Source: a virus. From it: 64,000 bases of DNA. This document shows positions 61,809 through 62,229 of the stretch, in pieces. The notes beneath the pieces are model-generated. The model did not search any database and was not told the DNA's origin. It worked only from the letters and a program-made list of their open reading frames with translations. How positions within the stretch are numbered: the first letter of the stretch is position 1; each line of letters opens with the position of its first letter. Location: positions 3,387 to 67,386 of the IMG/VR virus record IMGVR_UViG_3300036398_000516; one strand, written 5' to 3'. A program made the translations under genes and the position numbers.

Positions 61809-62229
61809 GGGGGTGTACTGGCTTTGACAGACATGAGGCTGGTAGTATCACATGCAAGCCTTGGAACAGGTAAACAAGTTCTAAACAATAACCGTAAAGA
61901 GTCAATCTGAGCGTGTTGAAGAAGGTGCTAGCATTATTGCTATGGCTTTCGCTTCTGAGTATGCATTAGCAGCTTAGTCAACGGGGTGGTAACAACCTGG
62001 CAACAGAAAGTTACAAGCGTTTTCTCTGTTATGTCAAAACAGAGTGGTGGTAGATAGCAAACCCTGCGATCCCAACTACTGATCAAGATGAAGCTTTGGA
62101 CTGTAGTAAATACACAAGCTTGAAACATAGGAAACGCTACAGCAGACTCCTATATCAAATAGATCTAAGCATGTAAGAATGGTATTATTATCACTTGTCT
62201 GGACAGGGGTTCAACTCCCCTCACCTCCA
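61809..62229 (+). ncRNA. ssrA: tmRNA (ssrA-like transfer-messenger RNA), phage-encoded, apparently full length
   Basis: The 5' end GGGGGUGUACUGGCUUUGACAGAC matches the conserved tmRNA 5' region GGGGcUG...CUGG.UU.GAC. The 3' end GGACAGGGGUUCAACUCCCCUCACCUCCA gives a T-arm GGGG/UUCAACU/CCCC and an acceptor 3' strand CACCUCC plus discriminator A. The 5'/3' strands pair with a G3:U wobble, the alanine identity element. An internal tag ORF GCU UUC GCU UCU GAG UAU GCA UUA GCA GCU UAG encodes AFASEYALAA*, a canonical ...YALAA degradation tag (61945-61977). Confidence 0.8.

Follow-up and report, generated by a model that had tools for sequence, protein, structure and literature searches.

Does a transfer-messenger RNA (tmRNA) gene carried by a phage work for that phage, and if so, in what way? 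The question is raised by a locus on the plus strand of a 64,000-nt stretch of viral DNA (positions 3,387 to 67,386 of IMG/VR record IMGVR_UViG_3300036398_000516), which is called the window below. Judged from its protein similarities, the source is an uncultured, environmental crAss-like phage of ~115 kb, of which the window makes 64 kb visible. At 61809-62229 (+), it carries a full-length, one-piece tmRNA gene of 421 nt up to the discriminator A. The identity of this gene, its structure, the covariation within it, the conservation of its reading frame, and its presence or absence in relatives are established here. We consider it likely that the product is a functional one-piece tmRNA, which the phage would add to the trans-translation system of its host and which would act by the ordinary mechanism.

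A complete tmRNA gene

The Rfam tmRNA model RF00023 matched positions 61809-62232 (+) over its full length (model positions 1-374) at 86.8 bits (E = 2.7e-32), against a curated gathering score of 47 bits, and was the only Rfam family matched in the 64-kb window. ARAGORN agreed, returning as the sole tRNA-like gene of the whole window a tmRNA at 61809-62230 (+). The locus is a complete tmRNA, far beyond chance expectation, and the initial annotation, which had proposed a complete phage-borne tmRNA of ~420 nt, was correct on this point. The 5' end (GGGGGTGTACTGGCTTTGACAGAC) and 3' end (GGACAGGGGTTCAACTCCCCTCACCTCCA) that it quoted both occur exactly as written. The alanine identity pair that it named is also present: the 5' strand of the acceptor stem, GGGGGUG (61809-61815), pairs with the 3' strand, CACCUCC (62222-62228), placing G3 opposite U70, and the discriminator A follows at 62229, in agreement with the Rfam alignment. 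Two minus-strand open reading frames (ORFs) at 61690-61905 and 61940-62128, which had been called spurious, do exist as listed frames, but they overlap an RNA gene under structural selection, and the former also overlaps a conserved plus-strand ORF.

Selection on the tRNA-like domain and first pseudoknot

Related-phage tmRNAs were gathered by terminase synteny, by a family-specific motif in helix P2, and by Rfam where ARAGORN failed; six tmRNAs were found by Rfam and missed by ARAGORN. Compared loci (viral relatives, other viral contigs, and bacterial contigs) are labeled with L-numbers. Since MAFFT alignment of whole tmRNAs, or of the first pseudoknot (PK1), misregistered helices of unequal length, we relied on domain constructs and on pseudoknot searches of each sequence with shuffled controls.

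From a construct of the tRNA-like domain (TLD) and P2 representing 11 distinct family copies, RNAalifold recovered the canonical fold, with 12 of 33 pairs altered on both sides. Across the construct, 96.4% of cells were paired, compared with 84.1% in shuffles and 36-51% with slid partners, and two-sided compensatory changes occupied 46 cells where 14 were expected. The covariation score was 0.372 versus 0.133, a value that none of 500 shuffles reached. Much the same holds for P2 by itself, whose 5' strand (CAGAC...GGUAGUAUCA-CAUGC, 61828-61855 (+)) and 3' strand (GCAUG-UAAGAA-UGGUAUUAUU...GUCUG, 62169-62201 (+)) are supported by RNAalifold and by pair counts over the same copies: 8 of 17 pairs were altered on both sides, and 96.8% of cells were paired (36-51% in slid controls). 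In the T arm, which the Rfam alignment places at 62205-62221 (+) as AGGGG-UUCAACU-CCCCU, two of the five stem pairs covary among relatives. The acceptor stems of relatives differ as well (GGGGCCG/CGGCUCC, GGGCCUG/CAGGUCC, and GGGGAUG/CAUCUCC), with G3:U70 always retained.

PK1 lies at 61858-61884 (+) and consists of P3 (GCCU/AGGU) and P4 (UUGGAAC/GUUCUAA). The H-type pseudoknot search returned a pseudoknot of 10-12 bp in all nine distinct family sequences, built from different nucleotides, and its size was attained by 0-7 of 300 shuffles. Copies in related phages thus support both the TLD/P2 core and PK1 by compensatory change, which points to selection on the RNA.

The tag reading frame

Just 5' of the tag stands a resume-codon context, AAUAACC (61887-61893 (+)), which compares with the RF00023 consensus AAUAAuU followed by GCa. 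ARAGORN assigns the resume codon to GUA at gene position 86 (61894), opposite the consensus GCa in the Rfam alignment, and reads a tag frame at 61894-61977 (+) of 27 codons, VKSQSERVEEGASIIAMAFASEYALAA, closed by UAG at 61975-61977. The homologous resume codon is GCA in relatives L244, L234, and L236, with tags AKSKSERVAEGASIIAMAFASEVALAA (L244) and AKTKSERVAEGGAIIASLFAGRVAVAA (L234 and L236). At positions 86-99, most of 21 viral tmRNAs have an A-(U/A/C)-A-A-N-Y context and, right behind it, a first codon starting with G. The decapeptide AFASEYALAA with UAG, read at 61945-61977 in the initial annotation, is present as stated and ends in EYALAA, but it is the last part of a tag of 27 codons rather than a tag of 10.

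ARAGORN tag calls for several loci (L089, L104, L241/L243/L247, L235/L239, and L087) were corrected by reading the frame. Every family copy keeps the frame open over 23-27 codons and closes the tag with A-A or L-A after a hydrophobic residue. Counted by direct reading, the window and L244 differ by seven synonymous and four nonsynonymous codons, an AGU-UCU serine switch being among the synonymous differences. For the window and L009, the figures are five and three, respectively. An unrelated viral tmRNA family gives 12 synonymous versus 2 nonsynonymous differences (L100 versus L109), and of its 14 base changes, 13 fall at third codon positions. Read in this way, the whole frame looks translated and appears to be under selection at the peptide level. 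A 21-nt block at 61929-61949, which encodes ASIIAMA in the window and EAILASI in L002, is exchanged with the frame kept. The same exchange keeps a hairpin (CUAGCA/UGCUA becomes GAAGCUA/UAGCUUC), indicating that RNA structure within the frame is constrained as well.

The retained frame bears on whether the RNA could be a decoy that titrates SmpB, EF-Tu, or alanyl-tRNA synthetase (AlaRS) and thereby blocks host trans-translation. TLD-only phage tmRNAs that inhibit tmRNA do exist, as in mycobacteriophage DS6A (PMC4131195, PMC11915505), and viral contig L088 holds an 82-nt TLD-only match. A decoy, however, needs neither PK1 nor a resume context nor an open, conserved, synonymous-biased tag frame, all of which the window gene keeps. 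Because the tag frame is conserved, we regard an inhibitory role as very improbable.

Downstream pseudoknot modules

Covariation in relatives points to a PK2 candidate at 61982-62014 (+), with P6 (CGGGGU/ACCUGG) and P7 (GUAAC/GUUAC). The homologous positions read CUGGGU/ACCUGG, UGUGGGU/ACCCACA, or UAUAGGU/ACCUAUA for P6, and GUAAC/GUUAC versus GCAAC/GUUGC for P7. A G.G mismatch in P6 weakens the candidate in the window copy, and shuffle tests on single sequences are weak; for the window itself, the test is not significant (108 of 300 shuffles attain the observed size). The PK3 region at 62024-62071 (+) reads as two covarying hairpins on either side of GUGGUGG, a segment unchanged across 14 copies. 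Hairpin A (CUCUGUU/AACAGAG) has a compensatory change to CUCUAUU/AAUAGAG in L002 and L004, and hairpin B (GAUAGCA/UGCGAUC) has one to GAUAGUA/UACGAUC in L048.

By direct reading, a PK4 candidate at 62091-62153 (+) would comprise S1 (AAGCUU/AAGCUU), S2 (CUGUAG/CUACAG), and S3 (AUAGGA/UCCUAU). This variable module is common to the window, L231, and L245 and is missing in L230 and L241, while L002 and L004 have unrelated sequence at the site though otherwise near-identical to the window. PK4 is a plausible pseudoknot and a swappable module. The gene is a mosaic (61929-61949 and 62074-62166), its TLD and PK1-PK3 being those of L004 and its PK4 that of L231/L245; the acceptor stem of L231 differs from that of the window.

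Genomic site and phage background

The tmRNA gene sits between two phage ORFs without Pfam matches. The stop codon of the upstream ORF (61610-61807 (+), 65 aa) ends 1 nt before the tmRNA, and the ATG of the downstream ORF (62257-62526 (+), 89 aa) lies 27 nt past it. The same flanking arrangement with a tmRNA occurs in L002, L004, L005, L009, and L015. No tmRNA remnant was found at the empty sites of L014, L025, and L043, and the junction in L025 and L043 reads ...TAA AAACAAAACAAC ATGGCA.... Given such clean empty sites in close relatives, we class the tmRNA gene as accessory, with clean gain or loss at one fixed position between the two ORFs.

The ends of the gene say little about its origin. 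An identical 29-nt 3' end occurs in at least 120 contigs of bacterial origin, among them Verrucomicrobiota, Fibrobacterota, Clostridia, and Spirochaetota; as it is spread over many phyla, we rejected it as a marker of a host or of a phage tmRNA lineage. The shared 29-mer is a common TLD sequence. Compared with 107 bacterial tmRNAs that have the same ends, the window tmRNA shows similarity only in the 3' 29-mer and in a 5' stretch of no more than 17 nt, and at 421 nt, it is 70 nt longer than the median of same-end bacterial copies (351 nt).

These observations decide against a passive passenger, that is, a fragment of host ssrA or an attP remnant left by imprecise excision, or a decaying pseudogene. 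Such an origin would have precedent, since tmRNA genes are often integration sites and temperate phages hold 3' fragments of them (PMC3029335, PMC9004378), and the window copy has lost its CCA. Yet the gene is full length by RF00023, with both halves present, and stands at a fixed site between phage genes with no integrase detected nearby. Its compensatory conservation holds among phages with terminase divergence of up to ~15%, the 107 bacterial tmRNAs share its ends and nothing internal, and the relatives without a tmRNA show a clean junction. Structural selection, the tag frame, the fixed phage site, and the lack of internal similarity to bacterial copies together rule out a recently captured fragment, and we treat the passenger explanation as effectively refuted. 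The initial annotation had likewise argued against an attP fragment from the presence of the 5' half; to that can be added the match to the full model, the flanking phage genes, and the lack of an integrase among the ORFs scanned.

The lack of any internal sequence in common with the bacterial copies compared also fits a role in counter-defense or repair bypass, in which the phage copy would replace host tmRNA that nucleases or defense systems had cleaved or sequestered, much as phage tRNAs may stand in for cleaved host tRNAs. The analogy draws on phage tRNAs proposed to evade tRNA-targeting defenses (PMC10264068), on CoCoNuT systems carrying SmpB-like domains predicted to bind tmRNA (PMC11090510), and on a report that RtcB repairs tmRNA more often than any other target (PMC11090510). 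No recognizable defense or anti-defense gene adjoins the tmRNA, however, and close relatives do without it, so that this role appears improbable.

Among 27 window ORFs scanned against Pfam, none was an SmpB (PF01668), integrase, protease, or adaptor; ten further large ORFs were scanned against PHROGs only. A sigma-70 promoter scan found 41 candidates where 43 were expected from shuffles, with a consensus that may not suit a crAss-like phage or a Bacteroidota-type host, and no terminators were found flanking the tmRNA gene. From ~56 kb onward, the plus strand is densely packed with small ORFs lacking Pfam matches. Upstream of the tmRNA in this block are two strong terminator-like hairpins (58414-58450 (+) and 59597-59624 (+)) with 17 and 11 pairs, respectively, and T-rich tails, which may delimit transcription units.

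The minus strand, from ~1 to 55 kb, holds a phage virion module. It encodes the large terminase (52233-54275 (-)), portal (49651-52233 (-)), major head protein (46130-47683 (-)), and a collagen-like tail fiber (39083-40945 (-)), along with large virion proteins. Pfam matches identify a crAss tail ring protein 2 homolog (34166-34900 (-); PF25702, E 6.5e-17), an SPFH/Band 7 domain protein adjoining the portal gene (49121-49651 (-); PF01145, E 5.6e-27), and an HU/IHF-like DNA-binding protein near the terminase (55417-55770 (-); PF00216, E 1.3e-6). Two giant ORFs, one of 3923 aa (4824-16595 (-)) and another, cut off by the left window edge and longer than 1609 aa (1-4823 (-)), gave no Pfam matches. 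The former has a DFDID motif at residue 3022 that recalls, as a motif match only, the DFDxD catalytic motif of crAss-like virion RNA polymerases.

At the DNA level, neither the tmRNA region nor a 19-kb part of the window matched any GenBank phage, and the phage is therefore placed by protein similarity only. Its terminase shares 40% identity with that of Leptolyngbya phage Lbo-JY46, 33% with those of Cellulophaga phages phi17:2 and phi4:1, and ~26% with those of gut crAss-like phages. IMG/VR contains at least 217 contigs with a related terminase, many of them 105-118 kb, which is probably the genome size range of these relatives. Two suggestions of the initial annotation are not established by these data: a Flavobacteriia host, given that the nearest terminases are spread over Leptolyngbya, Cellulophaga, and crAss-like phages, and a virulent lifestyle, with about half of the genome visible.

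Proposed role in trans-translation

Expression, processing, charging, use of host partners, and benefit to the phage are all inferred from the established trans-translation pathway. With no promoter or terminator of its own and gaps of 1 and 27 nt to its neighbors, the tmRNA most likely forms part of the longer transcript of the plus-strand small-gene operon, from which it would be excised. RNase P would cut the 5' end, and host enzymes would trim the 3' end and add CCA. Host AlaRS would charge the RNA with alanine through G3:U70, and host SmpB and EF-Tu would bring it to ribosomes that had stalled on mRNAs broken or lacking a stop codon. Translation would resume at GUA, adding the alanine from the charged tmRNA and then VKSQSERVEEGASIIAMAFASEYALAA, and termination at UAG would free the ribosome. 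Tagged proteins would carry C-termini ending in AVKSQSERVEEGASIIAMAFASEYALAA, and the terminal YALAA, a classical degron end, would send the tagged fragments to ClpXP-type proteases. The last five residues of the Escherichia coli tag are likewise YALAA. The benefit would lie in keeping ribosomes available while mRNA decay and host shut-off produce nonstop complexes, with the tmRNA acting as an accessory fitness gene. Ribosome supply is the benefit usually proposed for phage tmRNAs (PMC7162821, PMC9004378, PMC12656738). The initial annotation had offered either a supply of trans-translation capacity or a tag variant; both are plausible, and the tag variant is further supported by the present data.

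Several observations count against a functional, selected tmRNA and need to be weighed. The window copy lacks an encoded CCA (...CACCUCCA is followed by CAA), whereas the genes of relatives L009 and L078 include it. Bacterial genes for tRNA and tmRNA often lack an encoded CCA, which the CCA-adding enzyme then supplies. With CCA unencoded, the host must carry out 3' trimming and CCA addition; the missing CCA is no evidence of decay, and membership among tmRNAs is still open to the gene. P6 of the PK2 candidate has one G.G mismatch in the window copy. The synonymous excess in the tag frame is modest within the window's own clade, and RNA-level constraint contributes to the synonymous pattern. 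As to distribution, homologs of the two flanking ORFs lie adjacent without a tmRNA in L025 (13-nt gap), L043 (31 nt), and L014 (99 nt), and a tmRNA was present within at most 10 kb upstream of the terminase in 7 of 80 terminase-centered loci, the full 10 kb being present in only about half of them. The tmRNA is dispensable and not a core gene. Finally, in the literature searched, we found no experimental work on the function of any phage tmRNA. With these points taken into account, we still judge a working tmRNA added to the host system to be the likely explanation.

Long tags among viral tmRNAs

The length of the tag sets many viral tmRNAs apart from bacterial ones with the same ends. Where the 29-nt 3' end is identical, ~47 of 50 ARAGORN calls on bacterial tmRNAs give a tag of 8-12 residues, and three or four long bacterial calls start at non-standard positions. 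For one-piece viral tmRNAs sharing that 29-mer, the tag runs to 23-34 residues. A second viral sample was drawn with a different T-loop variant; 6 of its 14 one-piece tmRNAs had tags of 21-31 residues, which belonged to the same recurring types (...APSVAEADAILAKHGW...AAVAA; ...LLAEAEQIFNNADAYVPEEALLAA; DEMSTMTFDSMMEFIGASEYAYAA). The other eight tags were short; some short-tag tmRNAs on viral contigs may be host genes at prophage junctions. Long acidic viral tags fall into a few types with conserved internal motifs. These comparisons drew on viral loci L081, L082, L086, L089, L092, L098, L100, L104, L106, L108, and L109; on further viral loci L273, L283, L290, L298, and L307; and on bacterial counterparts L110-L189.

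A single viral long-tag clade was considered and found unsupported, as the window is 62% identical to the rest of the viral tmRNAs in P2/PK1 and 61-62% identical to those of bacteria. Two-piece tmRNAs with the same 29-nt TLD sequence were also seen on viral contigs L093, L094, L101, and L105, each between tRNA genes. Their tags of 23-31 residues have a cyanobacterial-looking ANNIVAFSR core after an extra AKTSDVA/AKTDxPA segment.

Tags in the tmRNA database are most often 10 aa long (PMC11915505), and the literature searched held no discussion of tag length in phage tmRNAs. Mycoplasma offers a precedent for extension, as its long tags are read by Lon and not by ClpXP (PMC9382460), and this switch makes an altered fate of tagged proteins a reasonable hypothesis. 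The extended tag might then be the point of the window gene: its 17 extra residues, which precede the FASEYALAA-like end and are conserved and part hydrophobic, part acidic, would change what becomes of tagged proteins, for example through another adaptor or protease or through phage-specific marking. Such a role would elaborate, and not exclude, the explanation preferred above. Along with the Mycoplasma precedent and the usual length of 10 aa, it draws on the contrast between 8-12 residues in bacteria and 23-34 in one-piece viral tmRNAs with the same 29-mer, the 6 of 14 long tags in the second viral sample, the acidic 25-residue tag annotated in records of cluster C mycobacteriophages, the recurrence of types with conserved internal motifs, and the synonymous bias of changes within the extension. 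Short phage tags exist, however, as in Streptomyces phage Forrest (ANSNFALAA) and crAss-like phage cr7_1 (13 residues), and identity between tag types is only 21-37%, leaving their homology unproven. Moreover, P2 and PK1 of the window are no closer to those of long-tag viral tmRNAs than to bacterial ones, the hairpins within the tag frame covary, so that length could partly serve RNA structure, the window ORFs scanned include no candidate adaptor or protease, and the tags of the hosts themselves might be long as well. We hold such a role for the extension to be possible but doubtful.

The broader proposal, that tags of 21-34 residues with a conserved, part-amphipathic acidic core and a ...LAA end are a recurrent phage-specific adaptation giving tagged proteins a different fate, strikes us as unlikely. 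If true, the phage would reprogram protein quality control besides adding rescue capacity. The spread between 21-34 viral and 8-12 bacterial residues behind identical ends provides a testable handle on what phage tmRNAs do.

Comparison with known tmRNAs

Phage tmRNAs are a known category, of which the window is a new example in the standard one-piece form. Complete copies are known from cluster C mycobacteriophages and Bacillus phage G (PMC4131195), and a survey found tmRNA in 402 of 18,146 phage genomes (2.3%; PMC9004378). Bradyrhizobium phages carry tmRNA as well (PMC12656738), as do huge phages, sometimes together with SmpB (PMC7162821). No phage-encoded SmpB of the kind that some huge phages have beside tmRNA was present among the 27 Pfam-scanned ORFs, in 64 kb of ~115 kb.

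Measured against bacterial one-piece SsrA, with E. coli as the reference, the window gene has the same TLD with G3:U70, discriminator A, and T arm; a long P2; PK1 ahead of a frame without a start codon; an AUAA-type context; a resume codon starting with G; a YALAA end; and downstream pseudoknot or hairpin modules. It differs in its place in a phage operon, its length (421 versus a median of 351 nt), a PK4 that is swapped or absent in relatives, a tag of 27 codons versus the typical 10 (PMC11915505), a GUA resume codon in place of the usual GCN, and the lack of an encoded CCA.

Cluster C mycobacteriophages (Bxz1 and relatives) also carry a complete tmRNA in a large tailed phage (PMC4131195). 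Their tag, ATDTDATVTDAEIEAFFAEEAAALV, is annotated as 25 aa long and acidic, with an A-E-x-E-A-F-F type segment resembling the viral tags described here. Unlike the window, which has no tRNA and belongs by its proteins to a crAss-like lineage, these phages have ~30 tRNAs and Actinobacteria hosts, and the two tmRNAs have no sequence similarity beyond the TLD. DS6A differs in another way: its TLD-only mini-tmRNA is phage-encoded and inhibitory and has no mRNA-like domain (PMC4131195), whereas the window gene keeps a full mRNA-like domain. The L088 match (2991-3072), which spans model positions 1-374 of RF00023 in 82 nt, is a TLD-only mini-tmRNA of the DS6A kind. A Pistol ribozyme match (L088 5224-5296, 42 bits) lies 2 kb from it.

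Permuted phage tmRNAs, found in cr7_1, Methylophilales phage Melnitz, pelagiphages, and cyanophages, are two-piece molecules matching RF04321, in contrast to the one-piece window gene (PMC9004378). Crassvirales already have an annotated SsrA, that of the RefSeq phage cr7_1 (NC_055895.1; L248 3975-4210), which is a permuted two-piece tmRNA (RF04321, 66.4 bits) with the 13-residue tag DNVNNIVDYTNVA. The annotated cr7_1 tmRNA feature (3945-4301) overlaps at its 3' end the start of a predicted tRNA-Cys. In the window's own family, one tmRNA (L242 7007-8074, IMGVR_UViG_3300028392_000477) is split exactly in the T-loop by a 667-nt insertion, GGGGUUC|GAAUCCCC, relative to L236 7798-8271; within the insertion lie an ORF of 127 aa, in which a LAGLIDADG-like motif occurs, and a group I intron (RF00028, 86 bits).

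For the environmental crAss-like lineage of the window, this is the first tmRNA that we can document, and it adds an abundant, uncultured group of ~115-kb phages to those with a complete copy. As an accessory gene gained and lost at a fixed site, it also provides a natural experiment: near-isogenic relatives with and without tmRNA, with swapped tag segments, and with swapped PK4 modules. The one unusual trait of the window tmRNA is a degradation tag nearly three times the usual length. Mycoplasma and Mesoplasma tags likewise exceed the 10-residue norm by far and are a precedent for extension accompanied by a change of protease (PMC9382460), but they are cellular, occur without ClpXP, and end in NYAFA, whereas the window tag keeps a ClpX-type ...YALAA end.

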